Assembly: GCA_902546975.1 (NCBI GenBank)
Contig: CACCLU010000004.1
Coordinates: 89,134 to 153,133 of the forward strand
Length of the DNA: 64,000 bases
From: an uncultured Alphaproteobacteria bacterium
GTDB taxonomy: Bacteria; Pseudomonadota; Alphaproteobacteria; HIMB59
Direction: 5' to 3'
This document shows, piece after piece, positions 14,023 to 31,604 of this stretch; within the stretch, counting starts at the first letter, position 1, and every line of letters starts with the position of its first letter. The notes under the pieces are model-generated. The model saw only the letters and a program-made list of their open reading frames with translations, was not told the DNA's origin and ran no database searches. The position numbers and the translations under genes were made by a program.

Positions 14023-15300
14023 TTACTGATATGCCTTGAGATTTAACTCAGCGCTATCAATACCTGCTTTTTGAACTGCATCTGGTACACGTAACCAATT
14101 CATCATTTTCATAATGAATGATAAACCATAACCAGGCACAAATCCTACTAAGAACATGACTATACATCCAACTAACTGTCCACCAAAACTTGTTGGAGGA
14201 ATATCACCAGATGCTGGATAGCCTGAAGCAAATAATCCCATTGCAATCACACCCCATATACCGGCAACTCCATGAACAGATATAGCTCCTACTGGATCAT
14301 CAATCTTGAAAACACTGTGTAACCAATTATTCGCAGGAATAATTATAACACCGCCAACAAAACCGAGAACAAAGGCTAATCCTGGATACCAAACATCAAG
14401 CCCAGACGCACAGGAGAAAATACCTGCAAGACCACCTGACATCATCCAGAATGGGTTACCTTTACTCATCCAGAATGCACCAATCATTCCTCCACCTAGA
14501 CCCATGAGGGTATTGAAAGCGAAAGATGATAATGTTGCTGGAGCACCGTAAATGTTTATCCATCCACCAAACTCTGCACCTGCCCAGATTAAACAACCAC
14601 CGAGGAATCCGAAGAAACCAACAATAATCATTAAAAGACCAATAAATGAGAAACGAAGATCATGACCCTCAATCTCATTCGCAGAACCGTCAGCATTGTA
14701 TTTACCAACTCTAGGTCCTAAGTTTAAGACAACTCCGAAAGCAAACCAACCTGCTACCATGTGAACAACACCAGCTGCTCCAACATCATGATATCCGAAT
14801 TGTGTTACTAACCAACCATCAGGATGCCAGCCCCATGAAGCGGCTAAGATCCATGCTACAGACCCTAAAACAACAGCCAAGAAAGTAAATGAGCTAATTC
14901 TTATTCTCTCAAGAACAGATCCTGAAAAAATAGATGCTGTAGTACAAGCAAATAATGTAAATGCTGCCCAGAAAACACCTGTGGCTTGGTCACTTAACAT
15001 TGGCCCCATAGATACATTCCATGGAGTACCATAACCGTCAAGTGCTATTGGAGTAAATCCCTCTGGAAATGCAAGATAAATATACCAACCAAATAACCAG
15101 AAGGTTGGTATCATAAACGCGAACGCTAAAAGGTTTTTTGTAGCTGAAGAGACCGCGTTTTTAAAACGAGACGATCCTACTTCATACATCAAGAAACCTA
15201 CGTGAATTGCAATCATTAACGCAGTACACCACCAATAGTAAGCTTCCATACTGACGTTCGCTTGCATCATCACGTACGATTCAAGTTCTTCAAGTGTCAT
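14023..15300 (-). CDS. amt: Amt-family ammonium/methylammonium transporter
   Basis: About 11 TM segments, twin His (GVVHMVAG, ISVHGVAG), DDPVGA, GxxER; SD AGGAGG. Confidence 0.92.
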   Translation of the reverse strand: MTLEELESYVMMQANVSMEAYYWWCTALMIAIHVGFLMYEVGSSRFKNAVSSATKNLLAFAFMIPTFWLFGWYIYLAFPEGFTPIALDGYGTPWNVSMGPMLSDQATGVFWAAFTLFACTTASIFSGSVLERIRISSFTFLAVVLGSVAWILAASWGWHPDGWLVTQFGYHDVGAAGVVHMVAGWFAFGVVLNLGPRVGKYNADGSANEIEGHDLRFSFIGLLMIIVGFFGFLGGCLIWAGAEFGGWINIYGAPATLSSFAFNTLMGLGGGMIGAFWMSKGNPFWMMSGGLAGIFSCASGLDVWYPGLAFVLGFVGGVIIIPANNWLHSVFKIDDPVGAISVHGVAGIWGVIAMGLFASGYPASGDIPPTSFGGQLVGCIVMFLVGFVPGYGLSFIMKMMNWLRVPDAVQKAGIDSAELNLKAYQ

Positions 15301-15533: not shown

Positions 15534-16841
15534 ATGGCAACTAACCTTCACCAATTTGCAAAAAAAAATGGTGTTAAATATTTTTTTGTAAGCTTTGTAG
15601 ATTTATTTGGAGTGCTCAGATCAAAGCTTGTACCTGCAACAGCTATAGATGAAATTCAATCTGAAGGTGCTGGATTTGCTGGTTTTGCAACATGGCTTGA
15701 TATGTCTCCAGCTGACTCTGATATGTTTGGTATGCCTGATGGTGATAGTGTTATCCAGCTTCCTTGGAATAAAGAAATAGCTTGGGTTGCCTCAGATTTG
15801 TTTATGGATGGTAAACCAGTAGAAACCTCACCCAGAATAGCCTTAAAAAGACAAATAGAAAAAGCAGCTAAAAAAAATCTTTATATGAAGTCAGGTGTTG
15901 AGTGTGAATTTTTTCTAGTTAATGAAGATGGGACTTCTTTATCAGATCAAAGGGATACGCAAGCAAAACCATGCTATGACTCCTCTGCATTAATGAGAAG
16001 ATATGATGTTATTACTGAAATATGTGACTCAATGATCTCACTTGGATGGAAACCTTACCAAAACGACCATGAGGATGCGAATGGTCAATTTGAAATGAAC
16101 TGGGATTTTTCAGATTGTTTAGTAACTGCAGATAGACATGCTTTTTTTAAATTCATGGTGAAATCTATTGCAGAAAAACATTCATTAAGGGCGACTTTCA
16201 TGCCCAAACCTTTCACAAATTTAACAGGCAATGGATGTCATTGTCATATTTCTATTTGGGATAAATCTGGCAAAAAAAATATGTTTTTAGATAAAAAAGA
16301 TGAATTAGGTTTATCCAAAACTGGTTACAATTTCTTAGGTGGAATAATGGAAAGTGCGGACAAAATGGCTGCTGTTTTTAATCCAACTGTAAACTCCTAT
16401 AAAAGAATTAACGGTAGTGTTACAACATCAGGTGCAACTTGGTCACCAAGTTCGATTACTTGGGCAGGTAACAACAGAACACACATGGTAAGAGTTCCTG
16501 GAGCAGGAAGATTTGAATTGAGATTAATGGATGGAGCTACAAATCCTTATTTACTTCAAGCAGGTATTTTACTTTTAGGATTGGACGGTTTAAATAATAA
16601 AAGAGACCCTGGTAAAAGATTAGATATTAATATGTACACAGAGGGTCACAAGGCTGGAAAAGTAAAGAAATTGCCATTAAATCTTCTTGATGCAATACGT
16701 GATTTTGATAAATCAAAAATCATTAGAGCAGGTTTTGGTGATGATTTAGTTAATAGCTATGTCAAACTAAAAAATCAAGATTGGGGTACTTTTAATAAAT
16801 ACCTTTCTAATTGGGAAAGAGAAACAACTCTAGATTGTTAA
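15534..16841 (+). CDS. gmaS: Gamma-glutamylmethylamide synthetase (GlnT/type III-annotated GS)
   Basis: GAGFAGFATWLDMSP, NDHEDANGQFEMNW, SGATWSP; methylamine-cluster context. Confidence 0.88.
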   Translation: MATNLHQFAKKNGVKYFFVSFVDLFGVLRSKLVPATAIDEIQSEGAGFAGFATWLDMSPADSDMFGMPDGDSVIQLPWNKEIAWVASDLFMDGKPVETSPRIALKRQIEKAAKKNLYMKSGVECEFFLVNEDGTSLSDQRDTQAKPCYDSSALMRRYDVITEICDSMISLGWKPYQNDHEDANGQFEMNWDFSDCLVTADRHAFFKFMVKSIAEKHSLRATFMPKPFTNLTGNGCHCHISIWDKSGKKNMFLDKKDELGLSKTGYNFLGGIMESADKMAAVFNPTVNSYKRINGSVTTSGATWSPSSITWAGNNRTHMVRVPGAGRFELRLMDGATNPYLLQAGILLLGLDGLNNKRDPGKRLDINMYTEGHKAGKVKKLPLNLLDAIRDFDKSKIIRAGFGDDLVNSYVKLKNQDWGTFNKYLSNWERETTLDC

Positions 16842-16848
16842 ATTATTT

Positions 16849-17403
16849 ATGACACCTGAAGTTTTACAAGAAAAGTTTCTTGATTGGCAATGTCAATCTA
16901 GAATTCAGGCATTTAGAACACAAAATGGCAGACCAAATTCATCTATGGCACCTATATTGCTTGATAAGAAAGGAAATGAACTTCTAAGAATTATTGTTGT
17001 AATTTCGGAAAATGATCCTGTAAACACTACAAAACTGTTTGAACACACTTTTAAACGAACTTACGATCCTGCTGATCGATTTGATAAAATGAATAAATTT
17101 TTATCTTCTGAATATTTTATGGATAAAGATAAATTTTCAGACTCTTTATTTGCTACTTTTCCAAAAAACTCAAGTATCTCAAAAAAAGTAGTTAAAGACG
17201 GCTCATGTATCTTAGATTTTATTCACCTTTCTACAAATTATAGATTGTCATGCTCTCCTTTTATTCTCGATAAAAATGAGGAACATTGGGAAAATATTTT
17301 TTGGCATAATAAAAATTTTAATTCTGGTTTGGGAAATGACATTGATGTTATAAAATTTATTCCAAACTGGAAAAAATCTAAATTAATAAGAATTAAAGAT
17401 TAA
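16849..17403 (+). CDS. Hypothetical protein co-transcribed with gmaS
   Basis: 184-aa ORF starting 7 nt after the gmaS stop and followed by a hairpin. Confidence 0.75.
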   Translation: MTPEVLQEKFLDWQCQSRIQAFRTQNGRPNSSMAPILLDKKGNELLRIIVVISENDPVNTTKLFEHTFKRTYDPADRFDKMNKFLSSEYFMDKDKFSDSLFATFPKNSSISKKVVKDGSCILDFIHLSTNYRLSCSPFILDKNEEHWENIFWHNKNFNSGLGNDIDVIKFIPNWKKSKLIRIKD

Positions 17404-17416
17404 AATATTTGAAAGT

Positions 17417-17440
17417 ATAAGGGAGCAAAGGCTCCCTTAT
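17417..17440. terminator. Hairpin between convergent operons, probably a bidirectional terminator
   Basis: ATAAGGGAGC-aaag-GCTCCCTTAT. Confidence 0.75.
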
Positions 17441-17450
17441 TTATAAAATT

Positions 17451-17927
17451 TTACTCAACTAACTTAAAGTTCTCACCCTTAGCGTATGTTCTTTTTAACT
17501 GTACCAAGGGATGATTAGGTGACATTTGAAACTTAATTAAAAGTTCTCTTGCTAACATATCTCTGTCTTGTTGGTTTTTTGGAAGTTTAATCTTCTTTGG
17601 TAAAGTTATCCAAGCGTTTGCATTTCTGTCAAACACAGCAGGGGTATCGCCTTCAAAACCCATATGGATGTCCTCTAACCAATTTAAATCATCCCAACCC
17701 ATAATTTCGATATATTGTTTAAGAAATGGTGTTAAGTGCTTGTAATCAGGAATTAGGTTAACATCATAACGATAGCCAATATGCTGGCCAATCATTTTTT
17801 CTCTTGATGTTTTAATTTCCTTATCTTTTAATTTAGCTCCGCCGACAACTTGATAACCTTTTGACTTAGTAGGTTTTTTTGATTTTGCAGAAGTTGATTT
17901 CTTTTTTGTAACTTTCTTTTTAACCAT
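17451..17927 (-). CDS. Hypothetical protein with Lys-rich N-terminal tail
   Basis: SD AGGAG; last gene of the 23893-17451 operon. Confidence 0.75.
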   Translation of the reverse strand: MVKKKVTKKKSTSAKSKKPTKSKGYQVVGGAKLKDKEIKTSREKMIGQHIGYRYDVNLIPDYKHLTPFLKQYIEIMGWDDLNWLEDIHMGFEGDTPAVFDRNANAWITLPKKIKLPKNQQDRDMLARELLIKFQMSPNHPLVQLKRTYAKGENFKLVE

Positions 17928-17936
17928 AATACTCTC

Positions 17937-19271
17937 CTAAATTGAGTGGTAGTTATCTACACCTACTGTTAAATCTGTACCAGCCAATGGAACTTTAGCC
18001 ATTGCTGATGACTCCATTGTCAATGCAGCTAGATCTTCTGGCTCAAGTGAGTGAATGTTTGTCTTACCACATGCTCTTGCTAACATTTGGCACTCAAGAG
18101 TCATAGTGCTAAGCAAATTATAAACTCTCTCTGCTGCCTCTGTTGGGTCTAATCTACTTCTAAGAACAGGATCCTGTGTGGCCACACCAACTGGACATCT
18201 ACCAGTATGGCAGTGATAGCAGTAACCTGCCTCCACTCCCATTTCTTTTTCATAATCAGCTTCTGGAATATCTTTGTTACAGTTCAGTGCTACTAATCCA
18301 GCTGTACCGATAGCAATAGCATCTGCACCAAGAGCTAAGGCTTTAGCCATATCAGCTCCATCTCTAATACCTCCAGCAAATACCAATGATATTTCACCAG
18401 TTTTACCAACATCGTCCAAAGCTCTTCTTGCTTCTCTAATTGCCCCAATACCAGGAATACCAGTATTAGCTGCTGCGATGTGTGGGCCAGCTGCTGTTGA
18501 GCCTTCCATAGAGTCTAAAAATATAGAGTCAGGGTCACATTTTGCTGCCATTCTGACATCGTCATAAACTCTTGATGCACCTAATTTCAATTGAATTGGC
18601 ACTTGATTGTCAGTTAATTCTCTTAATTCTTGAACCTTAAGAGCTAAATCGTCCGGTCCCATCCAGTCTGGGTGTCTAGCAGGGGATCTTTGATCAATAC
18701 CAGCAGGTAATGATCTCATCTCAGCTACTTGGTCAGTAACTTTCTGGCCCATTAAGTGACCACCCATCCCAACTTTTTGACCTTGGCCAATGAAAACCTC
18801 AATAGCGTCAGCTAATTGAGCATGGTGTGGGTTGAAGCCATACCTGGATTGAATACATTGATAATACCATTTGTGAGAGTACCTTCTCTCATCAGGTATC
18901 ATACCCCCTTCTCCAGAGCAAGTTGCACTTCCAGCCATTGATGAACCTCTAGCTAAAGCAGTTTTTGCTTCATAAGAAAGAGCACCAAAACTCATACTTG
19001 TTATGTAAACAGGAATATCAAGTTTGATAGGATTTTTTGCTCTAGGGCCTATTATTGTTTCTGTTAGACACTTCTCTCTGTAACCTTCAATAACAAATCT
19101 TGTTAATGTGCCTGGTAAAAAAACTAAATCATCCCAGTGAGGAATTTTTTTCATTAACGCCATACCACGCATACGATAACGACCAAGTTGTGATTTGATA
19201 TGAATGTCGTCCATTACCTCGGGGGTAAAAATTGAGTTTTGTCCTAATAATTGTGTATTACGTTTTGCCAT
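17937..19271 (-). CDS. FMN-binding glutamate synthase-family subunit (MgsC paralog retaining Cys cluster)
   Basis: SMSFGALS, SGEGG, GQGQKVGMGGHL, SPARHPD, CYHCHTGRCPVGVATQD. Confidence 0.88.
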   Translation of the reverse strand: MAKRNTQLLGQNSIFTPEVMDDIHIKSQLGRYRMRGMALMKKIPHWDDLVFLPGTLTRFVIEGYREKCLTETIIGPRAKNPIKLDIPVYITSMSFGALSYEAKTALARGSSMAGSATCSGEGGMIPDERRYSHKWYYQCIQSRYGFNPHHAQLADAIEVFIGQGQKVGMGGHLMGQKVTDQVAEMRSLPAGIDQRSPARHPDWMGPDDLALKVQELRELTDNQVPIQLKLGASRVYDDVRMAAKCDPDSIFLDSMEGSTAAGPHIAAANTGIPGIGAIREARRALDDVGKTGEISLVFAGGIRDGADMAKALALGADAIAIGTAGLVALNCNKDIPEADYEKEMGVEAGYCYHCHTGRCPVGVATQDPVLRSRLDPTEAAERVYNLLSTMTLECQMLARACGKTNIHSLEPEDLAALTMESSAMAKVPLAGTDLTVGVDNYHSI

Positions 19272-20107
19272 TAGCCTAATATTCCTTTCTTTTCTGCTGG
19301 CTCTAGATTGTCATAATTCCAGAGCATTCTTCCTGCAACGTATTTCTTAAATTTTGAAGCTGGGACCTTGCAATCAATCTCAGCATTTTTAATTTTTTGT
19401 TCTAGCCATCTAACCTCGTGTTCATTCATTTCACCAGGTACGCAGTCTGTTCCAAGCGAATGAGGCTCCCCTCCTACAAAAATGATTCCATCATACATTG
19501 AGTCACCCATGTTTGCGTTTACATCACCACAAACGATAATTCTTCCTCTTTGCATCATAAATCCAGTGTAAGCTCCAGCATTTCCGCCAATAAGAATAGT
19601 GCCACCTTTCATATCAATTCCAGTTCTTGCACCTGCATCGCCTTTAACTATAAGGTCACCGCCTCTAAGAGCAGCTCCAAAACAAGATCCTGCATTGTTT
19701 TCAACAACAACTTTTCCTGACATCATATTTTCAGCACATGACCAACCAACTCTTCCGTTAACTCTCACTGTTGGTCCATCGATACAACCGATACCAAAAT
19801 AACCTAAGCTACCCTCAAAGATTAAGTTTAACTTATTTAGAATTCCCACACCAAGTGAATGTTTTGCACCAGGGTTTTTAATAACTATAGACCCATATCC
19901 CTTTCGAATTGCATCTCTGATTTTTTGATTCAATTCATGAGCATCAATGCCTTCACAATCAATGGAGGTTCTTTTATTAAAATCAACTTCGTGATTACCG
20001 TAGTAGGTATAATTTTCTTCTTCTGTTACTTCAAAATATAATTTTTGCGATCTACCTGATAAATTTTCATCATCAAAAGCAGTAGTTCTTTTTGTTATGC
20101 CTGCCAT
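19271..20107 (-). CDS. GXGXG-domain protein (MgsB/GltB3 paralog) with N-terminal extension
   Basis: Repeated G-x-G-x-G beta-helix motifs (GDAGARTGIDMKGG, GNAGAYTGFMMQRG). Confidence 0.85.
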   Translation of the reverse strand: MAGITKRTTAFDDENLSGRSQKLYFEVTEEENYTYYGNHEVDFNKRTSIDCEGIDAHELNQKIRDAIRKGYGSIVIKNPGAKHSLGVGILNKLNLIFEGSLGYFGIGCIDGPTVRVNGRVGWSCAENMMSGKVVVENNAGSCFGAALRGGDLIVKGDAGARTGIDMKGGTILIGGNAGAYTGFMMQRGRIIVCGDVNANMGDSMYDGIIFVGGEPHSLGTDCVPGEMNEHEVRWLEQKIKNAEIDCKVPASKFKKYVAGRMLWNYDNLEPAEKKGILG

Positions 20108-21036
20108 ACTTTTACCTCCGCTTCATAAGGGTCATATGTTTTAATTTCGTGAGGAAATATATTCCTAATTGCAACTTCCTCTGATGCACATGCTACGATG
20201 TCTTTACTTTCGTAGATTACCATTGGCTTAGCGGCCATATGGTCTTTTGCCATTCCCAACTGATCCTTTGTTGCTACAACATATGTAAAAACTCCATCGA
20301 GCTCATCCAAGCTATCATGCATAGCTTTTTCTAGTTCAATGCCGTTAGCCATCTTATCAGCTATATAGACAGCAATTATTTCTGAGTCACAATTTGAATT
20401 AAACCTGTAACCTTTTCTTTCAAGTACTCTTCGATTGCCCCAATAGTTAGTCAATTGACCATTATGAACAACTGACACATCCTCAAAAGGAAAAGCCCAA
20501 TAAGGGTGTGCGGATTTAATATCTACATCAGACTCGGTAGCCATCCTTGTATGGCCAATACCGTGGGTACCCATAAATTTATCAAGGCCATATTGATTGG
20601 ATACAGTATTTGCATCGCCTAAGTCTTTAATGAGCTCAAGACCCTTACCAATAGATAAAATTTCAGTTTTTTCGACTGTTTCTATCTCAGTAGCCAAATC
20701 TGTGAGGTCACCTTTAAAATCAAATATATATCTGAAAGCGTATGGGGTGCTGGAGCTTTCTTTTGTTACTTTAGCACCATGTTTTTTTAAAATAGAGTCG
20801 ACAGCATTTTTTCTATTTTTTAAATCAGCAGGTGAGTCGACAGTTGCATTTACCTTTTCAGCCTCGTTTTCAGATATTTTAAATCTCATTACAAAGCCTT
20901 TTTTTAAAGGTGTTCCGTACATAGCATATCCTGTTGAGTCAGGTCCCCTATGTTTAAGACCTTGTAACATAAGGCCCATTTGTTCACCGACGTTGACTGT
21001 CTTCTTTTTATTTATAACTCCAGCTATTCCACACAT
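20095..21036 (-). CDS. Class II (Ntn) glutamine amidotransferase (MgsA paralog)
   Basis: N-terminal MCGIAG, HRGPDSTG, GHTRMATES, HNGQLTN, DSE. Confidence 0.88.
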   Translation of the reverse strand: MCGIAGVINKKKTVNVGEQMGLMLQGLKHRGPDSTGYAMYGTPLKKGFVMRFKISENEAEKVNATVDSPADLKNRKNAVDSILKKHGAKVTKESSSTPYAFRYIFDFKGDLTDLATEIETVEKTEILSIGKGLELIKDLGDANTVSNQYGLDKFMGTHGIGHTRMATESDVDIKSAHPYWAFPFEDVSVVHNGQLTNYWGNRRVLERKGYRFNSNCDSEIIAVYIADKMANGIELEKAMHDSLDELDGVFTYVVATKDQLGMAKDHMAAKPMVIYESKDIVACASEEVAIRNIFPHEIKTYDPYEAEVKVWQA

Positions 21037-21055
21037 ACTTTTCTCCTATCTTATC

Positions 21056-22525
21056 TTATGGTAAGCAATCTAGGTATTTATCGAGATCCCATTGAGTCGG
21101 AGTTGCTAAAAATTCTTCCCACTCATCTCTTTTATACTCCATAAACACTTTCATCATGTCACCTGGTAGAGCATCTTGTATTACCTTATCGGTTTCTAAT
21201 CGATCTAATGCCTCACCAAGAGTCATTGGTAATTTTTCAACTTGCTTACCAGCTTTCATTTGTTCATACATATTTTGTTGTTCAGGTTTGCCTGGATCCA
21301 TTTTCTTTGAAATACCATGGTCGAATGCTTTCAACAGGCCGCTTCCCATTAAGTATGGGTTGTGGGCTGAGTCAACTGATCGATATTCAAATCTACCAGG
21401 GGCAGATACCCTTAAACCACAGGTTCTGTTTTGATATCCCCAGTCCGCATAAACTGGAGCCCAAAAACCTGTATCCCAAAGTCTTCTATATGAATTCACA
21501 GTTGAGGAACCCAAGGCTGTTAAAGCAGGAAGGTGTTCCATGACACCACCAATTGCTTGAAGGCCTATTTTTCCAGGAATTCTTCTATCTTTTCCGTCCG
21601 GCATAAAGACATTTGTACCTCCCCTACGGTGATGAAATACATTTTCCATACCTGGGATAGTCTTGTTACCACATGGTATTAACTCATCTTTTCCGCCCTT
21701 CCAGAGTGAAATATTTGTGTGACACCCAGAAGCAGACACGCCAACAAATGGCTTACTCAGAAAACAAGCAATCAAATTAAATTCTCTTGCTACTTGAGCA
21801 CAGATTTGTCTGTAAGTTGATAACCTGTCAGCGTTTCTAACAACATCATCGTAGTTGAAATTTAGTTCTAATTGTCCAGGCGCGTCCTCATGGTCACCTT
21901 GGATAATGTCCAAACCCATTGCACGTGAATACTCAATTACTTTCATGTAAACAGGTCTTAATGATTCAAATTGATCAATGTGATAGCAGTAAGGCTTAGA
22001 GAAACCTGAGCCAGTCGGTGAACCATCTTCGTTTTTTGTTAACCACATCATTTCAGGTTCTGTCCCTGCTCGTAATTCTAGTTTGTGTTTCTTTTTAAAT
22101 TCTTCATGGGCTCTTTTTAAGTTACCTCTGCAATCAGATGTAAGATATCCACCAGGATCTTTTTCTTCTTCCCTGTTTCTAAAACAAGTACAAAAAACTC
22201 TGGCAATTCTTTTATCCCATGGAATTTGAACAAATGTTTCAGGGTCAGGTATACCCACTAATTCGTGAGCCTCTGGTCCATAACCTATGTAATCACCATG
22301 TCTATTTGTAAATAGATTAGCAGTAGCTCCATAAACTAATTGGAAACCTTTATTGGCTACACTCTCCCAATGATCTGCAGGAACACCTTTACCTACAATT
22401 CGACCTGTAACAGAAATAAATTGATAATAAATGTACTCAATTCCTAATTTATCAATTTTTTTTCTAACTTGTTTTATATAGTCTTGTCTCTTTTTATCCT
22501 TAACGTACGTTTCTAGCGCTGTCAT
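21056..22525 (-). CDS. Glutamine synthetase-like gamma-glutamyl-amine ligase (paralog 2, GMAS-like)
   Basis: GTEPEM, GDHEDAPGQLE, SASGCH, FWAP, NRTCGLR, FEYRSVD..NPY. Confidence 0.85.
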   Translation of the reverse strand: MTALETYVKDKKRQDYIKQVRKKIDKLGIEYIYYQFISVTGRIVGKGVPADHWESVANKGFQLVYGATANLFTNRHGDYIGYGPEAHELVGIPDPETFVQIPWDKRIARVFCTCFRNREEEKDPGGYLTSDCRGNLKRAHEEFKKKHKLELRAGTEPEMMWLTKNEDGSPTGSGFSKPYCYHIDQFESLRPVYMKVIEYSRAMGLDIIQGDHEDAPGQLELNFNYDDVVRNADRLSTYRQICAQVAREFNLIACFLSKPFVGVSASGCHTNISLWKGGKDELIPCGNKTIPGMENVFHHRRGGTNVFMPDGKDRRIPGKIGLQAIGGVMEHLPALTALGSSTVNSYRRLWDTGFWAPVYADWGYQNRTCGLRVSAPGRFEYRSVDSAHNPYLMGSGLLKAFDHGISKKMDPGKPEQQNMYEQMKAGKQVEKLPMTLGEALDRLETDKVIQDALPGDMMKVFMEYKRDEWEEFLATPTQWDLDKYLDCLP

Positions 22526-22546
22526 TTTATTCCTCCTCCTTTTACA

Positions 22547-23893
22547 TCAACTCCAAGGGAACGGGCTCTTTGAAACCGGATGTAACTTCCCTTCTTCATA
22601 ACGAGAAAATCTAAAAGGTTCTAGAATTTCAGATTTCTCACCAAGTAACTCATTAGATACAAGATCACCTAACCCAGCCATTTTGTATCCATGGTTTGCA
22701 TCAGCTATAATATATACGTTTTCTCTGTATCGGTCGAATACGGGAAAACGATCTGGAGTAACACAGCCAATACCGCCAGCTTTTTGCTTTTTGTATTTAG
22801 CGTGACATCCATCAAATTGCTTTTGGCAAAAAGCCAAAGCTGAGGTCCATTTATCCTCAAAAGAAGCCCTAGGTTGAAACTCATCTGAGTCATGACCATA
22901 AGGGTCAAGACTTATGTCGTTTACAGGTTTATTTATGTCATAAGGAGAGGAGCCGCCTTGTATACCATCTCTGTAGACATCGGGCTTATAGTAAAAACCC
23001 CACATAACATTTTCATGTATAACATCTCCTGTTTTATTTGAGACAAGTGTAGCTTCTGTATCAACATGAATAACTGGGTACTCTGTTCCGTTTGCTGTTT
23101 TATAACTTCTTGGATCAACTTCCAACTCACCCTCTTCAAGCGCCATGTATGACCACATAGGTATATCATCAGTAAATGAACCATCAGGTTTTTTTATTTT
23201 TACGGTGTTAGGTAATTCTAAAATTTCCCAAAATTTTCTTACCCAAGGGCCAGCCGCAACAACTAATTGAGTGCATTCAATTTTACCCTCTGAAGTTTCT
23301 ACAGCCGAAACTGCTCCACTACCATTAGAAGAAATTAAATTGTTAACAGTCACACCTTCTAAAACTTTTGCTCCAGCTGATACTGCTAACTTATGGAAGC
23401 CCTCTATAGCTCCTCTATTAGCTCCATATCCTGTTTTCTTTTCGTGTAAAACTGAAGTGATGCCTTGAGCTTGCCAATCTGGCAACATGTCTTTCATATA
23501 CTTATCACAATCTGATGCTCCCTCGATAAACTCAGAGTCAAATCCTATTTCTTTTTGCTGCTCATAAACTTCAGACATGCCCTCTTGCATAAGCTCGGAG
23601 TTGATCTGCATGTAGCCAACTGGCTTGTAAGTTAAAGCCTCAGCATTCTCATTCCAAACATTTACAGAATGAGCCATTAGTCTTCTCATTGCAGGCTGGT
23701 AGTAGTTGTTCCTTACAATTCCACATGCAACACCACTTGCTCCATTTGCAACTTTGGATTTTTCCAAAACGACTACAGAATTTTCTTTGAGTTGGCCTTT
23801 GCTGGATAATTTTTTACAAAGATGCCATGCGGTGCTCAGACCGTGAATTCCAGCCCCGATTATTAAATAGTCACATTTAGTAGGTAAGCTCAT
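22547..23893 (-). CDS. FAD-dependent oxidoreductase, DAO/SoxB superfamily (start moved to ATG 23893)
   Basis: GAGIHGLSTAWHL Rossmann motif, GASGVACG; SD GGAGG precedes ATG at 23893. Confidence 0.85.
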   Translation of the reverse strand: MSLPTKCDYLIIGAGIHGLSTAWHLCKKLSSKGQLKENSVVVLEKSKVANGASGVACGIVRNNYYQPAMRRLMAHSVNVWNENAEALTYKPVGYMQINSELMQEGMSEVYEQQKEIGFDSEFIEGASDCDKYMKDMLPDWQAQGITSVLHEKKTGYGANRGAIEGFHKLAVSAGAKVLEGVTVNNLISSNGSGAVSAVETSEGKIECTQLVVAAGPWVRKFWEILELPNTVKIKKPDGSFTDDIPMWSYMALEEGELEVDPRSYKTANGTEYPVIHVDTEATLVSNKTGDVIHENVMWGFYYKPDVYRDGIQGGSSPYDINKPVNDISLDPYGHDSDEFQPRASFEDKWTSALAFCQKQFDGCHAKYKKQKAGGIGCVTPDRFPVFDRYRENVYIIADANHGYKMAGLGDLVSNELLGEKSEILEPFRFSRYEEGKLHPVSKSPFPWS

Positions 23894-23952
23894 TATTTTA
23901 GTAACCTCCAAGCAGTTACATTTTGTCTGTGAGGTATGAAAAAAACACATTT

Positions 23953-24851: not shown

Positions 24852-26171
24852 TTAAATCTTACCAGGCACCCAACCGGTTCCCGCTAAAGGAACCCTTGCC
24901 ATTGCAGCAGCTTCAACTGTTAATGCACATAGGTCCTCAGGTTCAAGATTATGTAAATCGTTTTTACCACATGCCCTCGCTATAGTTTGGGCTTCAAGAG
25001 TCATAACCTTGAGATAATTAGATAATCTTTTTCCACCTTTTACTGGATCTAATCTTTTCATTAATTTTGGATCTTGTGTATTTATACCTGATGGGTCTTT
25101 ACCTTCATGCCAATCATCGAAAGCACCAGCTGTTGTTCCAAGTTTTTTGTAATCGCTCTCCCACTTTGGATCATTATCACCCAGTGCAATTAATGCTGAT
25201 GAACCAATGGAAACAGCATCAGCACCCAATGCCATAGCTTTTGCAACATCCGCACCATTTCTAATTCCACCTGAAATAATTAACTGAACCTTCCTGTGCA
25301 TATCTAAGTCTAATAAAGCATCTACTGCTGGCCTGATACATGCCAATGTTGGCTGACCTACGTTTTCGATAAATACCTCTTGTGTAGCTGCAGTACCTCC
25401 TTGCATGCCATCAAGCACCACCACATCAGCACCGGCTTTTACTGCAAGTGCAGTATCGTAGTAAGGCCTAGATCCTGCAATTTTTACAAATATGGGAACT
25501 TTCCAACCTGTTATTTCCCTGAGTTCTAAAATTTTAATTTCCAAATCATCTGGTCCAGTCCAATCTGGATGTCTACATGCTGATCTCTGATCAATTCCTT
25601 TTGGTAATGTTCTCATCTCGGCAACACGATCACTTATCTTTTGACCGAGTAACATACCTCCACCGCCAGGTTTAGCACCTTGACCTATCACAACTTCAAT
25701 AGCATCTGCTTTTCTTAAATCCTCTGGATTCATTCCATACCTTGAGGGAAGTAATTGGTAAACCAAATGCTTTGATTGTCCTCTCTCCTCAGGGGTCATG
25801 CCTCCATCGCCTGTTGTCGTTGAAGTCCCGGCAATACTAGCTCCTCTTCCAAGCGCTTCTTTCGCTGGTCCTGAGAGAGCTCCAAAGCTCATTCCAGCAA
25901 TTGTTATTGGAATATCTAATTCAAGCGGTTTTTTTGCAAATCTTGTTCCAAGAGTGACGTTAGTACTACACTTTTCTCTATAGCCCTCTAAAGGGTATCT
26001 TGACATTGATGCGCCTAAAAAAAGAAGATCGTCAAAATGAGGTAGTCTTTTTTTTGAACCACCGCCTCTAATGTCATAAATACCTGTTTCTGCAGCTCTT
26101 CGAATTTCAGAGTTTGTATAGTCATCAAATGTCCAAGATTTTCTTGGTGTAGTTTTAAATTTTTCTGCCAT
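24852..26171 (-). CDS. mgsC: N-methylglutamate synthase FMN subunit
   Basis: AGMSFGALS, TGDGG, GQGAKPGGGGMLLG, SACRHPDWTGPDDL; Cys-less FDDWHEGKDP. Confidence 0.85.
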   Translation of the reverse strand: MAEKFKTTPRKSWTFDDYTNSEIRRAAETGIYDIRGGGSKKRLPHFDDLLFLGASMSRYPLEGYREKCSTNVTLGTRFAKKPLELDIPITIAGMSFGALSGPAKEALGRGASIAGTSTTTGDGGMTPEERGQSKHLVYQLLPSRYGMNPEDLRKADAIEVVIGQGAKPGGGGMLLGQKISDRVAEMRTLPKGIDQRSACRHPDWTGPDDLEIKILELREITGWKVPIFVKIAGSRPYYDTALAVKAGADVVVLDGMQGGTAATQEVFIENVGQPTLACIRPAVDALLDLDMHRKVQLIISGGIRNGADVAKAMALGADAVSIGSSALIALGDNDPKWESDYKKLGTTAGAFDDWHEGKDPSGINTQDPKLMKRLDPVKGGKRLSNYLKVMTLEAQTIARACGKNDLHNLEPEDLCALTVEAAAMARVPLAGTGWVPGKI

Positions 26172-26854
26172 TAGTACTCCGATACATTATCTATATTAAA
26201 ATTATAAAGTTTTCTTGCTGAACCATACATTTTGAAGTTTTTAATCTCACTTTCATTTATACTTGCTTTTTTTAAAAGAGATCTCAAAATATTTTGATCT
26301 TTTTTATTCATTTTTTTCTCTTCGCAGTCAGCACCGAGTGATTTCACCTTACCCTTAATAAAAATATTTGCTTCATAGATACTGTCTCCCAGAGCGTCTC
26401 CAGCATCTCCACATATAACTAAATTTCCAGATTGAGCCATAAATGCAGACATATGGCCTACCGATCCTTTAACTATAATATCTATTCCTTTCATTGAAAT
26501 CCCACAACGTGAACTAGTATCACCATCAATGATCAAAGTTCCACCATGTGCTGTAGCACCGGCTGATTGGGATGCATTGCCCTTAACATGAACAGTTCCA
26601 GACATCATATTTTCTGCAACACCTGTGCCCACATTTCCATTTACAATGATATTTGCATTCATGTTCATACCAGCACAATAGTATCCTGTGTGACCATCAA
26701 TAGTGACTTCAATCTCGTCTTTTAGTCCAGCACAAATAGCGTGATTTCCATCTGGATTTGAAATTTTAAAAATCTTTTTGTTTGATTTTCTATCTATACT
26801 CTGAAGAGTTTCATTAACTTTTCTCAATGACTCTTTTTTTAAATTTAAATTCAT
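26171..26854 (-). CDS. mgsB: N-methylglutamate synthase GXGXG subunit
   Basis: GHTGYYCAGM, GNASQSAGATAHGG, RCGISMKG. Confidence 0.85.
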   Translation of the reverse strand: MNLNLKKESLRKVNETLQSIDRKSNKKIFKISNPDGNHAICAGLKDEIEVTIDGHTGYYCAGMNMNANIIVNGNVGTGVAENMMSGTVHVKGNASQSAGATAHGGTLIIDGDTSSRCGISMKGIDIIVKGSVGHMSAFMAQSGNLVICGDAGDALGDSIYEANIFIKGKVKSLGADCEEKKMNKKDQNILRSLLKKASINESEIKNFKMYGSARKLYNFNIDNVSEY

Positions 26855-27735
26855 TATTTGCCCCAGCTGTATACTTTTCCGGGCTCTGGTTCAAAAATTT
26901 TTGCTGAATTTACATTTGGTAAGTGTGCCATTGCTTGAAACTCTGAGGCAATAGCAACATAATCCTTTGTTTCTGCAACAACTGCGGGTTTACAAGCTAT
27001 CTCATCTCTAACAATTGCCATGCCATTTTTGGTTCCAGAAATAAATGTGTAAAAACCATCGAGGTCCTTCAGTCCATCCAAAAGTGTTTCTTTGAGTGAT
27101 TTTTTATCAGATAATCCGTTTGAAATATAACCTGCAGCGACTTCCGTATCATTCAAGGACTTTATTTCAATCCCTTTTTTCTGAAGCGATCTTCTTAAAT
27201 TGTTGTGATTTGACAAAGATCCGTTATGTACAAGACATTCATCCTCGCCTGTGGAATATGGATGAGAGCCATCTGTCGTGATTGCACTTTCTGTTGCCAT
27301 CCTTGTATGCCCAATAGCATGTGAGCCAGAAAACTTCTCTAGTGAAAAATTTTTAACAACATCCTTCGGATTTCCTACTTGTTTAAATATTTCTATGCAA
27401 CTACCATACCCAACTAAACTTAATTCATCATGATTTTTTAAAATTTCTATAAATTTCTTTGGCTTCATTGCTGTTTCAATTATTAAATGATCTGAAATAG
27501 ATTTTACTTTGATATCTTTTACTTGCTTAGATAGTTTTTTTGAAATTTCTTTTACTTGATCAGTATTAGAGCAGACCGAATATTTATATTTCTTTTTTTT
27601 CTCAGATGAGTATATCGCAAAACCTGCACTATCAGGACCACGCGTAGCCATACTATTCATCATTCCAGTAAGAAATTTACCTAATTGTGAATTATATTTT
27701 TTATTTTTTAAATATATTCCAACTATACCGCACAT
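26854..27735 (-). CDS. mgsA: N-methylglutamate synthase Ntn-amidotransferase subunit
   Basis: MCGIVG, RGPDSAG, GHTRMATES, HNGSLSNH. Confidence 0.85.
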   Translation of the reverse strand: MCGIVGIYLKNKKYNSQLGKFLTGMMNSMATRGPDSAGFAIYSSEKKKKYKYSVCSNTDQVKEISKKLSKQVKDIKVKSISDHLIIETAMKPKKFIEILKNHDELSLVGYGSCIEIFKQVGNPKDVVKNFSLEKFSGSHAIGHTRMATESAITTDGSHPYSTGEDECLVHNGSLSNHNNLRRSLQKKGIEIKSLNDTEVAAGYISNGLSDKKSLKETLLDGLKDLDGFYTFISGTKNGMAIVRDEIACKPAVVAETKDYVAIASEFQAMAHLPNVNSAKIFEPEPGKVYSWGK

Positions 27736-27740
27736 TAATA

Positions 27741-28337
27741 TTAAATACCCTCATACCCATACTCTAATGACGAGTCAGTAATGCTATGGTAAAAAGAACC
27801 ACCAAAGCTTCTTAATGCATAAAGGTTAAAACAAAACGGTTGGTCGTCTAAATAGTCGATCAGTATGTTAATTCCGTTATATGTCGTGTTCACGCAATTA
27901 TTTGGTTTAAACATATTTTCATTAAAATTTATTGGAGAACCTTTTTTTAAAACATTTTTTGCATTTACGCCTGATATTTGTAATACAGCTCTTGATTGTG
28001 AAATATCTGTAATGGCAAAATCCTCATCTCTAATCGATTTATAAATTTCGTCTTTCAAGTCAATTTTTTTTGAGATAATTAACCAGGTATCAGGACCGGT
28101 CCACAATACTCTTGTTTCTTGGTTGTGAGAAACTTTTAGACTTTCTGTCGGTAAATTAAGTTGATTTATGGTAACTTTTTCAATCTCAATTGAGCTTTTT
28201 TTAAATTTAGCAATTTGGATAATACTTAGGTCTTTTATTTCTGAAATTTTTAATAGGTTTTCTTTATTCTCATAGTCGCCAAACAAGCCGAGCTTATGAT
28301 CAAAATGAAGTGGTGATAGGTTTTGTGCTTGTTCCAT
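27741..28337 (-). CDS. soxG: Sarcosine oxidase gamma / N-methylglutamate dehydrogenase small subunit
   Basis: LWTGPDTWL, DISQSRAVLQISG, RSF; operon position. Confidence 0.85.
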   Translation of the reverse strand: MEQAQNLSPLHFDHKLGLFGDYENKENLLKISEIKDLSIIQIAKFKKSSIEIEKVTINQLNLPTESLKVSHNQETRVLWTGPDTWLIISKKIDLKDEIYKSIRDEDFAITDISQSRAVLQISGVNAKNVLKKGSPINFNENMFKPNNCVNTTYNGINILIDYLDDQPFCFNLYALRSFGGSFYHSITDSSLEYGYEGI

Positions 28338-31336
28338 TATGATCTTACCCTTGAGCCTTCGGGATCAACATAGTGTGAGGATACTACCTCAACAGGAATT
28401 GAAATATCTTTCAAAGGAGAGACAGCATATAGATTTTTACCAATTTTATTTTTACCATCTTTTATAATAGCTATGGAAAAAGGATTATTATATTCAACAC
28501 TCCAACAAGAAGATGAAACATGTCCAAGTTTAGGTATTGGGGCAACAGCACTATTATCTTCTATAATATGTGAACCCTCTGGGATCTTTGTTTTTTTGTC
28601 TAGTGGAACAAGTCCAACAATAGTTTGTCTATCCGACTCAGTGAATGCATCTTTAGATAAAGATCTTTTACCTATGAAATCTTTTTTCTGACTCACCATA
28701 CTATTCAGTCCAACATCAAAAGGAATAGTACGTCCGTCTAATTCTGCTCCTGCGACATGACCCATTTCTATTCTTAAGGTTGATAGAGCTTCTGTTCCGT
28801 ATGGTTGAATATCAAATGACTGTCCTACTTCCATGATCTTCTTCCACATATAAAGACCATAGTTTGACTCGACATTTACCTCATAAGCTAGTTCGCCAGA
28901 AAAAGAAATTCTATAAATTCTAGCTTTGATACCGTCTATTGAAGAGTCCACTAGCCCCATGAATGGTAAGCCCTCATTAGACATATCTACATCAGGAAAT
29001 AACTTAGATAAAAGATCTCTAGACTTTGGACCTGCCACTGCTATACCAGACCACTGTTCAGTAGTTGATAAGACATTTACATCTAAATCTGGCCATACAA
29101 CTTGTAAATAATACTCTAAGTGCGATAAAACATTTGCAGCTTGGGCAGTAGTGGTAGTCATATGAAAATGATTTTCAGATAATCGAGATGTTGTTCCATC
29201 ATCAAAAACCATGCCATCTTCCCTTAGCATTACTCCATATCTAGCTTTTCCAACGGGCAGTTTCAGCCATGCATTTGTATAAACTCTGTTTAAGAATTCT
29301 GGTGCATCCGGACCTTTAATATCAATCTTACCAAGTGTCGTAACATCACAAATTCCAACGTTTTTTCTTACATTTGCAGCTTCCCTATTAACAGCAGTGT
29401 TCATATCCTCAGAACCCCTTGGGTAGTATCTGGGTCTTTGCCATAAACCTGCTGCTACAAAAACAGCATTATTTTCCTCATGCCATGTATGAATGGGAGA
29501 TTTTCTTGTCGGTAAATAGTGATTACCAACTTCTCTACCTACGATAGCTCCAATTGTTACAGGAGTGTATGGTGGTCTAAATGTTGTATGACCAACTTCT
29601 GGAACAATCTTTTTTTCTATTTTAGATACATATTGCAAACCATTTAAATTACTTGTCTTACCTTGATCGCCGGCCATCCCAAGAGTTGTATATCTTTTGA
29701 CGTGCTCAATTGATCTGAAGCCTTCTCTAATTGCAAGCTCTACATCAGAAACTGCAACGTCATTTTGAAAGTCGATAAAGCGTTTTGGTTTTTTTCCAGA
29801 TGGTAAAGGCATACACCAGAGCTTTTCATGTTTTTCATAGCTAGGTTCATTTGAGTTGGGACTATTTGTAGGATTATTTTGATCTGTGAATTTGTTTGAT
29901 AAATCAAAGCCCACTTGAAAACCTTCAGCTAGAGATTGATTTAAGGTAAAAGAACCATTAGCAGCTCCAATTGCAGTTTCTTTCTGTCTTTTTTTATCTG
30001 GTACGAATGCATCAATATCATCGTTAAACTTTAATTTATTTCCAGCTTGGGAAGATAAATGAACCGTTGGTGTCCAGCCTCCGGACATACAAATGCAATC
30101 ACACTCTACTGTTTCTTCTAAAATAAAAGACTCTTTTGAAGAGTCAAGCTTACCAATGATAGCAGAGTTTATCTTCAAATGTCCTTTAGTGTCTGCGATC
30201 CCTGAATTAAATTTTATAGAAATACCCTTTTGCTGAACTTCCTTGACTAATTCACCGTTTGAGCTGTCTCGAGTGTCTACAATGATTGGTTCAATATCAT
30301 TTTTAATAAACTCAAGGGCAGTTGAATATGCTGTATCATTATTGGTAAATATAATTGGTTTCTTACCAACTAATGTTTCATAAACCTTCATATATTCTTT
30401 TGCTGCTGAGGCTAATACAATTCCTGGCCTATCATTGTTTCCAAAAGATATTGGTCTTTCAATAGAACCAGTTGAAACAATTACTTCTCCAGCTCTAATA
30501 TAATGTAGTCTTTGTCTTGGAGTGTATTTTGAGGGATTTTCAATATGATCGCTAACTCTTTCAATCATTACGGTCATATTGTGATCATAGTATCCAAAGA
30601 CTTGTGACCTTTTTTTTAATATTACATTTGGCATACTTTTTAGCTGGGAAATGGTATCACTAGCCCACTCTTTTCCTGACATGTTACCAATCGTAACTTC
30701 GTCAGTTAGAAGAGAGCCACCAAAATTAGGCTTGTCTTCTGCTAATATTACTCTTGCCCCGTTTTTTGCAGCAGCCAGAGCACTTGCGAGGCCTGATGGA
30801 CCAGAGCCAACAACGAGTACATCGCAGTGTTCATAATTATGCTCGTACCTATCTGGGTCAGGTAACAGTGGTGCTTTACCCATACCAGCAGCTTTTCTTA
30901 TAAATGGTTCATAGATTTTCATCCAAAAACTTTTTGGCCACATAAATGTTTTGTAATAGAAACCTGCAGGAAAAAAACGATTTAAGACATTATTGATTTC
31001 TCCAATATCAAATTGAACTGAGGGCCAACAATTTTGACTTTTAGCTTTTAATCCCTCAACTAACTCAACTTCGGTCGCAATGATATTAGGTTCAGATTTA
31101 TTACCATCATGCAATTGTACCATTGCATTTGGTTCTTCAACACCAACTCCCAAAAAACCGCGAGGGCGATGATACTTAAAACTTCTTCCAACTAAATGAA
31201 CACCATTTGCAATTAAAGCAGATGCAAGGGTGTCTCCTTCATAGCCATGATAAATAGTTCCGTTAAAAGTAAAGTTAATTTTTTTATCCTTATTAATAAG
31301 TCCGGTTGAGTTGGTTGTTCTAAAACTGTTAGACAT
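28337..31336 (-). CDS. soxA: Sarcosine oxidase alpha / N-methylglutamate dehydrogenase large subunit
   Basis: GRSFKYHRPRG, VGSGPSG, KRYTTLGM..DQGK, GcvT-like C-terminal half. Confidence 0.93.
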   Translation of the reverse strand: MSNSFRTTNSTGLINKDKKINFTFNGTIYHGYEGDTLASALIANGVHLVGRSFKYHRPRGFLGVGVEEPNAMVQLHDGNKSEPNIIATEVELVEGLKAKSQNCWPSVQFDIGEINNVLNRFFPAGFYYKTFMWPKSFWMKIYEPFIRKAAGMGKAPLLPDPDRYEHNYEHCDVLVVGSGPSGLASALAAAKNGARVILAEDKPNFGGSLLTDEVTIGNMSGKEWASDTISQLKSMPNVILKKRSQVFGYYDHNMTVMIERVSDHIENPSKYTPRQRLHYIRAGEVIVSTGSIERPISFGNNDRPGIVLASAAKEYMKVYETLVGKKPIIFTNNDTAYSTALEFIKNDIEPIIVDTRDSSNGELVKEVQQKGISIKFNSGIADTKGHLKINSAIIGKLDSSKESFILEETVECDCICMSGGWTPTVHLSSQAGNKLKFNDDIDAFVPDKKRQKETAIGAANGSFTLNQSLAEGFQVGFDLSNKFTDQNNPTNSPNSNEPSYEKHEKLWCMPLPSGKKPKRFIDFQNDVAVSDVELAIREGFRSIEHVKRYTTLGMAGDQGKTSNLNGLQYVSKIEKKIVPEVGHTTFRPPYTPVTIGAIVGREVGNHYLPTRKSPIHTWHEENNAVFVAAGLWQRPRYYPRGSEDMNTAVNREAANVRKNVGICDVTTLGKIDIKGPDAPEFLNRVYTNAWLKLPVGKARYGVMLREDGMVFDDGTTSRLSENHFHMTTTTAQAANVLSHLEYYLQVVWPDLDVNVLSTTEQWSGIAVAGPKSRDLLSKLFPDVDMSNEGLPFMGLVDSSIDGIKARIYRISFSGELAYEVNVESNYGLYMWKKIMEVGQSFDIQPYGTEALSTLRIEMGHVAGAELDGRTIPFDVGLNSMVSQKKDFIGKRSLSKDAFTESDRQTIVGLVPLDKKTKIPEGSHIIEDNSAVAPIPKLGHVSSSCWSVEYNNPFSIAIIKDGKNKIGKNLYAVSPLKDISIPVEVVSSHYVDPEGSRVRS

Positions 31337-31601
31337 TAAAGTCCTCGTTCATTTTACACGTATCAAAAATTTCATGTGTAGCGGTGTCTCTTGAGACTTT
31401 AAACCATTGTCTACATCCAGAAACATGATGCCATAGTTCTGAATGTTTTCCTCTTGGGTTGTCTCTGTAGTAAACAAAATTATCCCAATCCTCGGTTGAA
31501 ATTTCTTCTCCTAGTTGAGGTCTTTTTATAGTGGCGTCTCCGCCATAAGAAAATTCATTTTGTGAGCGCTTGCCACAGTATGGGCATTTTATTTCTAACA
31601 T
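31329..31601 (-). CDS. soxD: Sarcosine oxidase delta subunit
   Basis: CPYCG and WHHVSGCRQWF zinc ligands. Confidence 0.93.
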   Translation of the reverse strand: MLEIKCPYCGKRSQNEFSYGGDATIKRPQLGEEISTEDWDNFVYYRDNPRGKHSELWHHVSGCRQWFKVSRDTATHEIFDTCKMNEDFNV

Positions 31602-31604
31602 CTA

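Follow-up and report, generated by a model that had tools for sequence, protein, structure and literature searches.

An ancestral cysteine site in MgsC-like glutamate synthase paralogs and a candidate module for dimethylamine catabolism in an HIMB59 alphaproteobacterium

The window analysed here, a 64,000-nucleotide stretch of DNA from an uncultured alphaproteobacterium of the HIMB59 lineage (assembly GCA_902546975.1, contig CACCLU010000004.1, positions 89,134 to 153,133), encodes two related flavin mononucleotide (FMN) subunits of split, glutamate-synthase-like complexes. One of them, P0002, is the canonical MgsC of an N-methylglutamate synthase (NMGS) operon; the other, P0001, belongs to an extra gene module. 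The two proteins differ by a cysteine motif, raising the question whether this motif marks a different reaction and what the extra module does. A reading made from the letters without database searches (hereafter the sequence-only reading) had proposed that the extra complex keeps an iron-sulfur (Fe-S) centre and may perform net redox chemistry with an external carrier, unlike a Cys-less NMGS. As judged from alignments and phylogeny, the Cys contrast is real but is no indication of a different reaction. We consider it likely, from sequence comparison, that P0001 provides the FMN subunit for an ancient second paralog of a split N-alkylglutamate synthase complex, composed of a glutamine amidotransferase (GATase), a GXGXG and an FMN subunit, and that most genuine NMGS keep its ancestral Cys site.

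The two paralogs are 50% identical end to end. The coordinates, translations and position of the decapeptide CYHCHTGRCP given by the sequence-only reading are exact (Table 1), and the translation of P0001 contains LVALNCNKDIPEADYEKEMGVEAGYCYHCHTGRCPVGVATQD as quoted there. P0002 (439 residues) contains LIALGDNDPKWESDYKKLGTTAGAFDDWHEGKDPSGINTQD and has D, F, W and D opposite C331, C351, C354 and C359 of P0001; the aligned region is free of Cys, as reported, and five Cys lie elsewhere in the protein. P0001 matches PF01645 (E=3.5e-85) over the whole domain in a single stretch, residues 78-403. The match of P0002, with the same E value, is split in two because its Cys loop has diverged. By sequence, P0001 matches the structures of GltB, the large subunit of glutamate synthase (GltS, also GOGAT), at 1e-28. 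In the HMMER alignment, C331, C354 and C359 fall on C1102, C1108 and C1113 of Azospirillum brasilense GltB (chains 1ea0/2vdc), which we take to be the three ligands of its [3Fe-4S] cluster. C351 lies opposite Val1105 and is an additional, fourth Cys, giving the pattern C-x19-C-x2-C-x4-C-P. Compared with GltB, both paralogs have 17 additional residues between ligands 1 and 2, which places the first ligand 19 residues upstream of the decapeptide. The decapeptide quoted by the sequence-only reading thus holds C354 and C359, but the first ligand, C331 of 'LNC', lies outside it.

The cluster ligands of GltS are indeed kept in the extra FMN subunit and are invariant across its family. All four Cys are present in 120/120 of the closest P0001 homologs (79-100% identity), which come from Pelagibacter, HIMB59-type bacteria, Xanthobacteraceae, Rhodospirillales and others. 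They are missing in 120/120 of the closest P0002 homologs, whose loop reads GDNDPKWE..Y.KLG..AGA(Y/F)DDWHEG.DP. The contrast is therefore not due to chance. By homology, the cysteines of P0001 are the inherited GltS cluster site, three of them corresponding to the [3Fe-4S] ligands. They probably bind an Fe-S cluster, and with the fourth Cys the arrangement C...CxxCx4CP may hold [4Fe-4S] instead of [3Fe-4S]. An AlphaFold2 (AF2) model of P0001 from a 41-sequence alignment has a mean predicted local distance difference test score (pLDDT) of 68, and its best fold matches are glutamate synthases. The structure prediction suggested by the sequence-only reading thus confirms the GltS fold at the level of a model; it says nothing, however, on cluster geometry. 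In a plasmid collection no close relative of P0001 was found, the top match (53% identical) being of the MgsC type.

The same motif is found in genuine MgsC proteins. The MgsC of Methyloversatilis universalis FAM5 (EGK70214.1) carries all four Cys (GCNS...GFCHHCHTGKCPVGVTTQD), and without mgsC this strain no longer grows on methylamine (PMC5023235). Querying named genomes with a homolog from Burkholderia gave 80 loci, in which four-Cys MgsC stand beside gmaS, mgsA and mgsB, and frequently also mgd, in Methyloversatilis spp., Burkholderia/Paraburkholderia, Zoogloea, Thiobacillus, Rhodoferax, planctomycetes and actinobacteria. The ligase adjoining one Methyloversatilis sp. MgsC scores 693 bits against the GmaS structure 9qur. 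The MgsC proteins of Pelagibacter HIMB1427 and HIMB1746 have all four Cys in the classical gmaS-mgsAB(-mgd) context, and at locus L067 a four-Cys MgsC lies in a gene order (mgdD-mgsABC-IclR-DAO) that matches the window. The Rhizobium and Aminobacter proteins similar to P0002 reside in mgsABC-glnT-mgd clusters and lack the four Cys: GlxD of Rhizobium leguminosarum in a soxBDA(mgd)-glxA-mgsABC-glnT-purU-dmm island, and the MgsC encoded on pAA01 of Aminobacter aminovorans KCTC 2477, where it belongs to an mgsABC-glnT-mgdABCD cluster. Because true MgsC exist in both four-Cys and Cys-less forms, the motif cannot separate two reactions.

To the phylogeny we applied a maximum-likelihood tree of 91 proteins from which the Cys-loop columns had been removed, with branch support from the Shimodaira-Hasegawa-like approximate likelihood ratio test (SH-aLRT). 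P0001 falls outside the MgsC clade that unites the FAM5-type, Rhizobium and Aminobacter proteins. The extra-copy clade (SH-aLRT 100) has 12 members, all of them four-Cys; the MgsC clade (support 99) has 73, of which 61 carry the four Cys. The Cys-less and partial forms make up a single nested MgsC subclade (n=11, SH-aLRT 96) that holds P0002, proteins of Rhizobium, a Rhizobiales isolate, Nocardia, Streptomyces, Modestobacter and Solirubrobacteraceae, and the partial forms CYYC (Halochromatium) and CYYD (Methylophaga, Marinobacterium). Its sister is a four-Cys SAR11 MgsC group. One further partial row, CCMC from an actinobacterial metagenome-assembled genome (MAG), lies elsewhere in the MgsC clade, and ligands 1, 3 and 4 are kept in the outgroups and in GltB. 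As reconstructed from these sequences, the whole MgsC/GlxD family descends from a four-Cys ancestor, and the site was lost later and in steps, the Cys-less copy being the unusual one. Since only one nested subclade is Cys-less, the difference between the paralogs reflects loss in this lineage's canonical copy, not gain by the extra copy. The CYYC and CYYD forms look like intermediates of a stepwise loss. In the derived subclade D, F/Y, W and D occupy the former cluster pocket, and because this strongly constrained lineage runs without the Cys site, the N-methylglutamate reaction is evidently independent of it. The picture of NMGS as the Cys-less form did not hold, given FAM5 and the 61 of 73 proteins of the MgsC clade. 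The sequence-only reading had taken a common occurrence of the motif in characterised MgsC to speak against its proposal; the motif was found in FAM5 and in MgsC proven by context, and its value as a pointer to a different reaction is largely lost.

Two observations concern the MgsC proteins themselves. At loci L077, L080, L089 and L090 (Halochromatium, a Pseudomonadota MAG, Methylophaga, Marinobacterium), MgsC has one or two of the four Cys. The history of mgsC also differs from that of mgsA and mgsB (window 24852-27735, compared with L005, L067, L072, L094 and L095). MgsA and MgsB of the window are about 70-73% identical to those of a four-Cys Pelagibacter operon (L072) and of a Cys-less one (L095) alike, and 46-56% identical to the Rhizobium/Aminobacter proteins. 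For MgsC of the window, identity reaches 90% with the Cys-less Pelagibacter allele, 84-85% with Rhizobium/Aminobacter and 75% with the four-Cys allele. Either the Cys-less allele has spread by gene-specific replacement or it has evolved unusually slowly, as far as these identities indicate.

By these comparisons, NMGS exists in two forms, one with four Cys, which probably is an Fe-S flavoprotein, and a derived one free of Cys. The four-Cys kind includes, by sequence, the FAM5 enzyme, which genetics has defined, and at least some of those in SAR11. The classically purified NMGS was probably Cys-free; the enzyme from a Pseudomonas MA/Aminobacter-type organism was reportedly described by Pollock and Hersh as an FMN enzyme. 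In the literature searched, we found neither a note of the split nor an assignment of an Fe-S cluster to NMGS. The two forms provide a natural experiment on the job of the GltS cluster in a redox-neutral reaction. The role of the putative cluster in four-Cys enzymes could be structural, redox buffering, or electron entry and exit. For telling the paralogs apart the motif is unfit.

What, then, might the four Cys do? It is conceivable, if somewhat unlikely, that their role is purely structural, as a zinc site or redox-inert Fe-S cluster inherited from the GltS ancestor and non-catalytic in MgsC and the extra complex alike. A whole MgsC subclade has replaced the site by D, Y/F, W and D under strong constraint (84-90% identity among HIMB59, Pelagibacter and Rhizobiales), and partial-Cys intermediates exist, which would fit such a role; the positions, however, are homologous to a known redox cluster. 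A structural site would be compatible with P0001 as a second N-alkylglutamate synthase subunit, and is a sub-question more than a true rival.

The proposed use of a retained Fe-S centre by the extra complex, for net redox chemistry that involves an external carrier and that the redox-neutral NMGS would be without, now appears unlikely. It could take the form of a GOGAT-like reductive N-alkylation of 2-oxoglutarate, with electrons from a DAO-family flavoprotein, an electron-transferring flavoprotein (ETF) or ferredoxin, or of an oxidation passing from FMN through Fe-S to an acceptor, as in trimethylamine dehydrogenase (TMADH). The ligands are homologous to those of the electron-transfer cluster of GltS, the four Cys are absolutely conserved in the extra-copy family, a flavoprotein dehydrogenase/oxidase gene usually heads the operon, and the Aminobacter MgsC is Cys-less. 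Yet the same motif in genetically or context-proven MgsC makes it compatible with NMGS chemistry, and the DAO gene is not always adjacent. Across the related loci compared, no ETF, ferredoxin or GltD-like gene is conserved in the module, and none of 12 related loci has a GltD or ferredoxin gene. The orphan protein P0010 encoded after P0001 has no Cys, which rules it out as a ferredoxin. No dedicated carrier is encoded in the module; an external one is possible, but nothing specific points to it. The Lys and Arg that would bind a dicarboxylate are kept, favouring glutamate/2-oxoglutarate chemistry over direct amine oxidation and making a TMADH-like oxidation of dimethylamine by FMN and Fe-S unlikely. 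No trimethylamine or dimethylamine dehydrogenase was found among the PDB sequence matches at E<=1e-3 or the 50 listed fold matches, and the likeness is one of cofactors only.

The sequence-only reading rightly saw more than a simple duplicate in the extra copy, which falls in a clade of its own, has its own ligase of the glutamine synthetase (GS) type and shows an altered active-site motif. In an alignment with the genome's own GltB, the substrate-site segment reads QGAKPGEGGQLPG in GltB, QGAKPGGGGMLLG in MgsC and QGQKVGMGGHLMG in the extra copy. P0001 keeps the equivalents of Q969, K972 and R992 (QGQK...EMR positions), and has M for E975 and H for Q978. We take K972 and R992 (Synechocystis numbering) to bind 2-oxoglutarate and E975 and Q978 to be ammonia-site residues. 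The ligase P0005 scores 193 and 167 bits against the GmaS structures 9qur and 7cql and is no closer to true GS than to GmaS. The conserved set consists of a DAO protein (445-467 residues), the GS-like ligase (about 490 residues), a Cys1 GATase, the GXGXG and FMN subunits, the orphan protein (core of about 115 residues), a divergently transcribed protein of about 185 residues and usually an Amt transporter; ligase, GATase, GXGXG subunit, FMN subunit and orphan protein are its invariant core. Per-gene identity is 54-87% across genomes of 1.3-5.5 Mb. As judged from gene content and phylogeny, the module is a separate, self-contained and conserved system, and what discriminates the paralogs is the QGQKVGMGGHLMG motif, the 489-residue ligase and the orphan subunit, not the Cys motif.

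The orphan protein P0010 is 65-79% identical in 14/15 related loci and 32% in the actinomycete locus L088, with invariant NWLED and PAVFDR motifs and, in this genome, a Lys-rich tail. It has no Pfam or NCBIfam family match, and at E<=1e-3 its predicted structure (pLDDT 65) matches no fold in the PDB. We regard it as a probable fourth subunit. The divergently transcribed 184-residue protein likewise has no Pfam family. For P0006, whose homologs have 445-449 residues, the true start is probably M20 at 23893; the listed reading frame begins 19 codons earlier (MCFFHTSQTKCNC...). Within the module of the window, successive genes overlap at their stop and start codons or are separated by 10-21 nt, and the GATase and GXGXG genes stand directly upstream of P0001. 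A promoter and terminator scan of 16800-25000 stayed at chance level. It placed no minus-strand terminator inside the module, which is weakly consistent with one operon.

The distribution of the module points to dimethylamine, the product of the trimethylamine N-oxide (TMAO) demethylase Tdm. We drew 301 genomes evenly from the class and used the identical set in each search. The module is present in 26, MgsC-type proteins in 34, gmaS in 41, full-length Tdm in 16 and DmmC, a component of the dimethylamine monooxygenase Dmm, in three. Fourteen of the 16 Tdm-positive genomes have the module and the other two have DmmC. Among 151 genomes from the order around genome G127, 38 carry full-length Tdm: 29 have DmmC only, seven the module only, none both and two neither. 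Within one genus both states occur, two species having Dmm and two the module (G389 and G479 versus G436 and G456). Pooled, the Tdm-positive genomes (n=53) comprise 30 with Dmm only, 21 with the module only, none with both and two with neither. In at least six families 3-10 kb separate the module from tdm, in this genome's sister family the two adjoin directly, and the module is associated with Tdm more strongly than are gmaS or MgsC. The genomic link of the module to the dimethylamine step is well supported. A Tdm paralog that matches residues ~165-782 only, at 45-48% identity, was left out of the Tdm scoring. It occurs with or without full-length Tdm, in many genomes of G127's order among others (for example G127:C84:1817-3643, G275:C1:215126-216955 and G302:C15:22443-24257).

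Dmm has been reported missing in SAR11, dmmDABC being absent from all SAR11 genomes; this has been read as a bottleneck of marine methylated-amine degradation, the fate of dimethylamine there has been called an open question, and the oxidase SAR11_1304 has been named as a candidate for the step that still awaits testing (PMC5520151). From sequence and gene context, we regard the chances as even that the module handles Tdm-made dimethylamine by a glutamate-mediated route. More specifically, we tentatively propose, at slightly less than even chances, that it is the catabolic route for dimethylamine so far missing in SAR11, HIMB59 and other bacteria without Dmm, driven by ATP and passing through gamma-glutamyl-dimethylamide and N,N-dimethylglutamate. 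In such a route, the ligase would gamma-glutamylate dimethylamine in an ATP-dependent step, and the Cys1 amidotransferase would hydrolyse the amide and channel the amine into the complex. The FMN subunit would then oxidise glutamate, the amine would be exchanged onto the 2-oxo/imino acid, and re-reduction would give N,N-dimethylglutamate or another N-alkylglutamate. The DAO enzyme would finally demethylate the product oxidatively. A variant in which the Fe-S cluster links the FMN site to DAO or ETF, making the complex a GOGAT for methylated amines with nitrogen conserved as glutamate, is improbable. In the literature searched we found neither a glutamate-mediated route with glutamyl-dimethylamide and dimethylglutamate nor a function assigned to SAR11_1304-1308. 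If the proposal is true, the module closes the reported 'dimethylamine bottleneck' of the marine methylated-amine cycle, which bears on aerosol-forming amines. As a concrete candidate, open to testing, for the dimethylamine step in the most abundant marine heterotrophs it would be of value.

Several points weigh against this proposal and the assignments beneath it. The Cys loop of the P0001 model has a pLDDT below 50. The module was scored by one protein at >=78% identity and Dmm by DmmC alone, and the Fisher test of their mutual exclusion (p=8e-13) ignores phylogeny. Tdm is missing in 11 of the 26 module-bearing genomes of the class sample. The 20-kb neighbourhoods of L096 and L097 have no DAO gene; the module thus does not always include the demethylation step. 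No Amt-family pore is known to carry dimethylammonium. The Pelagibacter loci with the order module-amt-mgsABC-gmaS correspond to the tags SAR11_1304 (sox), 1305 (glnT), 1308 (gltB2), 1310 (amt), 1313-1315 (glxBCD) and 1316 (glnT) of 'Ca. Pelagibacter ubique' HTCC1062, which we equated with the module by gene order and not by sequence look-up. In HTCC1062 under nitrogen limitation, the DAO protein SAR11_1304 is induced and the GS-like SAR11_1305 and FMN SAR11_1308 proteins are slightly down (PMC3870248). Such opposite responses are odd for one pathway.

We also asked whether the module could be an isofunctional second NMGS with an oxidase for monomethylamine, differing from the first in affinity or regulation. 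This is doubtful. It would fit that 19 of the 26 module-bearing genomes have gmaS, that in the sister family five genomes have gmaS and the module without an MgsC-type gene and three have neither gmaS nor the module, and that the neighbouring Amt-family transporters carry methylammonium. However, seven of the 26 lack gmaS, so the module is independent of it. Half of the module-bearing genomes carry a complete gmaS-mgsABC set alongside, as do streamlined SAR11 and HIMB59 genomes, in which redundancy is rare. The module owns a very different GS-like ligase, its active-site motif differs, and it associates with Tdm more strongly than gmaS or MgsC do and excludes Dmm. A second GS-GOGAT pair for ammonium assimilation is rejected as highly improbable. 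The GS-like ligase, the cluster ligands of the GltS-like complex and the neighbouring Amt would fit it, as would public annotation, which names parts of the module glutamine synthetase and glutamate synthase. But the genome already has its own GltB, other residues stand at E975 and Q978 of the GltS site, the ligase resembles true GS no more than GmaS, the module is located in islands of methylated-amine genes and follows Tdm in its distribution, and the GS-like and FMN proteins of HTCC1062 decrease under nitrogen limitation (PMC3870248).

Table 1. Features of the window discussed in the text, with positions counted from its first nucleotide. L numbers are loci.
Feature	Position	Strand	Basis and remarks
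P0001, FMN subunit of the extra module (GlxD/MgsC-like, 'gltB2' type), 444 aa	17937..19271	-	Pfam PF01645, GltB structure matches, fold matches, tree
CYHCHTGRCP, P0001 residues 351-360	18192..18221	-	C351 (fourth Cys), C354, C359
C331 codon ('LNC'), counterpart of first GltB cluster ligand C1102	18279..18281	-	HMMER alignment
P0002, canonical MgsC, Cys-less allele	24852..26171	-	84-85% identical to Rhizobium/Aminobacter MgsC; nested Cys-less subclade
P0003, GXGXG-domain subunit	19271..20107	-	PF01493; stop overlaps P0001 start; 54-67% identity in all related loci
P0004, class II (Ntn) glutamine-amidotransferase-like subunit, begins MCGI	20095..21036	-	PF13522/PF13537; 58-64% identity, related loci
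P0005, GS-like ligase, 489 aa, distinct from GmaS	21056..22525	-	PF00120; 68-76% identity across class
P0006, DAO-family (SoxB/MSOX-like) flavoprotein	22547..23950	-	PF01266; PDB matches; beside module in most, not all loci
P0010, orphan protein (core ~115 aa), always after FMN subunit	17451..17927	-	no Cys; conservation in related loci
184-aa protein, divergent transcription, usual module companion	16849..17403	+	28-39% identity, same position in L007, L009, L011-L013, L097-L099
Amt-family transporter, frequent module companion	14023..15300	-	PF00909; neighbour in L007, L009, L010, L012, L013, L096, L099
gmaS (gamma-glutamylmethylamide synthetase)	15534..16841	+	613 bits to GmaS structure 7cql
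mgsB (26171-26854) and mgsA (26854-27735)	26171..27735	-	
mgdABCD-type N-methylglutamate dehydrogenase genes (SoxG-, SoxA-, SoxB-like)	27741..32861	-	
tmm (FMO-type trimethylamine monooxygenase)	33035..34369	+	PF00743
tdm-like, putative TMAO demethylase gene (783 aa), would produce dimethylamine	35733..38084	-	assigned by length, place beside tmm, full-length orthologs in trimethylamine gene islands

The module stands among other methylated-amine genes in a genome of 1.29 Mb, whose true GltB is encoded at a separate site. MgdA of the window is 63-67% identical to the Rhizobium and Aminobacter proteins. Just past amt (window 11147-13607) lie a third GS-like ligase (465 residues) and a class I amidotransferase/peptidase C26 gene, which may be another glutamylation module. 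The sole Rfam match in the window is a thiamine pyrophosphate riboswitch on the minus strand (58707-58802, 55 bits), far from the module; the scan found no riboswitch at amt. Beyond the window, a third GlxD-like type, 41-45% identical to P0001, occurs in open frames of 650-970 residues and is probably a fused protein. It lies 3-4 kb from gmaS in several alphaproteobacteria, and 10 of the 13 genomes with it also have the module (examples are G313:C4:1152991-1154199, G216:C4:443454-444665, G185:C81:5913-7133, G183:C2:589341-590552 and G131:C77:148016-149224). On a plasmid of Burkholderia sp. PAMC 26561 (L006), a four-Cys MgsC-type operon stands beside an APC-family permease and an XRE regulator, not Amt or mgd, and its substrate may be a different amine.

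Comparing the module with known systems places it closest to MgsABC (FAM5; GlxBCD of Aminobacter and Rhizobium). Both combine a Cys1 GATase, a GXGXG subunit and a PF01645 FMN subunit with the 17-residue insert, both are paired with a GS-like ligase and a flavoprotein of the N-methyl amino-acid oxidase type, and FAM5 MgsC has the same four Cys. Unlike MgsABC, the module forms a separate clade (SH-aLRT 100) with the motif QGQKVGMGGHLMG in place of QGAKPGGGGMLLG, has a 489-residue ligase (about 190 bits to GmaS), a single DAO protein instead of MgdABCD and an extra orphan subunit, and is linked to tdm, whereas MgsABC is linked to mgd. With GltB (A. brasilense 1EA0/2VDC; Synechocystis 1OFD) P0001 shares the FMN TIM-barrel, the three [3Fe-4S] ligand positions, CP-x-G-(V/I)-x-TQD and the presumed 2-oxoglutarate-binding Lys and Arg. 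It differs in that its complex is split into separate polypeptides, in the fourth Cys and the insert, in the replacement of E975 and Q978, and in having no GltD or ferredoxin partner encoded near the module. The genes SAR11_1304-1308 of HTCC1062 (sox, glnT, gltB2) have the gene order of the Pelagibacter loci L010, L061, L064 and L072, where the FMN subunit shows 84-87% identity. DmmDABC of Ruegeria pomeroyi has no sequence kinship with the module, and is a haem-, NADPH- and O2-dependent demethylase, whereas the module would depend on ATP and glutamate. Both occupy the same niche next to tdm, tmm and gmaS and are strictly complementary among Tdm-positive genomes. This complementary distribution suggests that the two systems serve the same physiological step.

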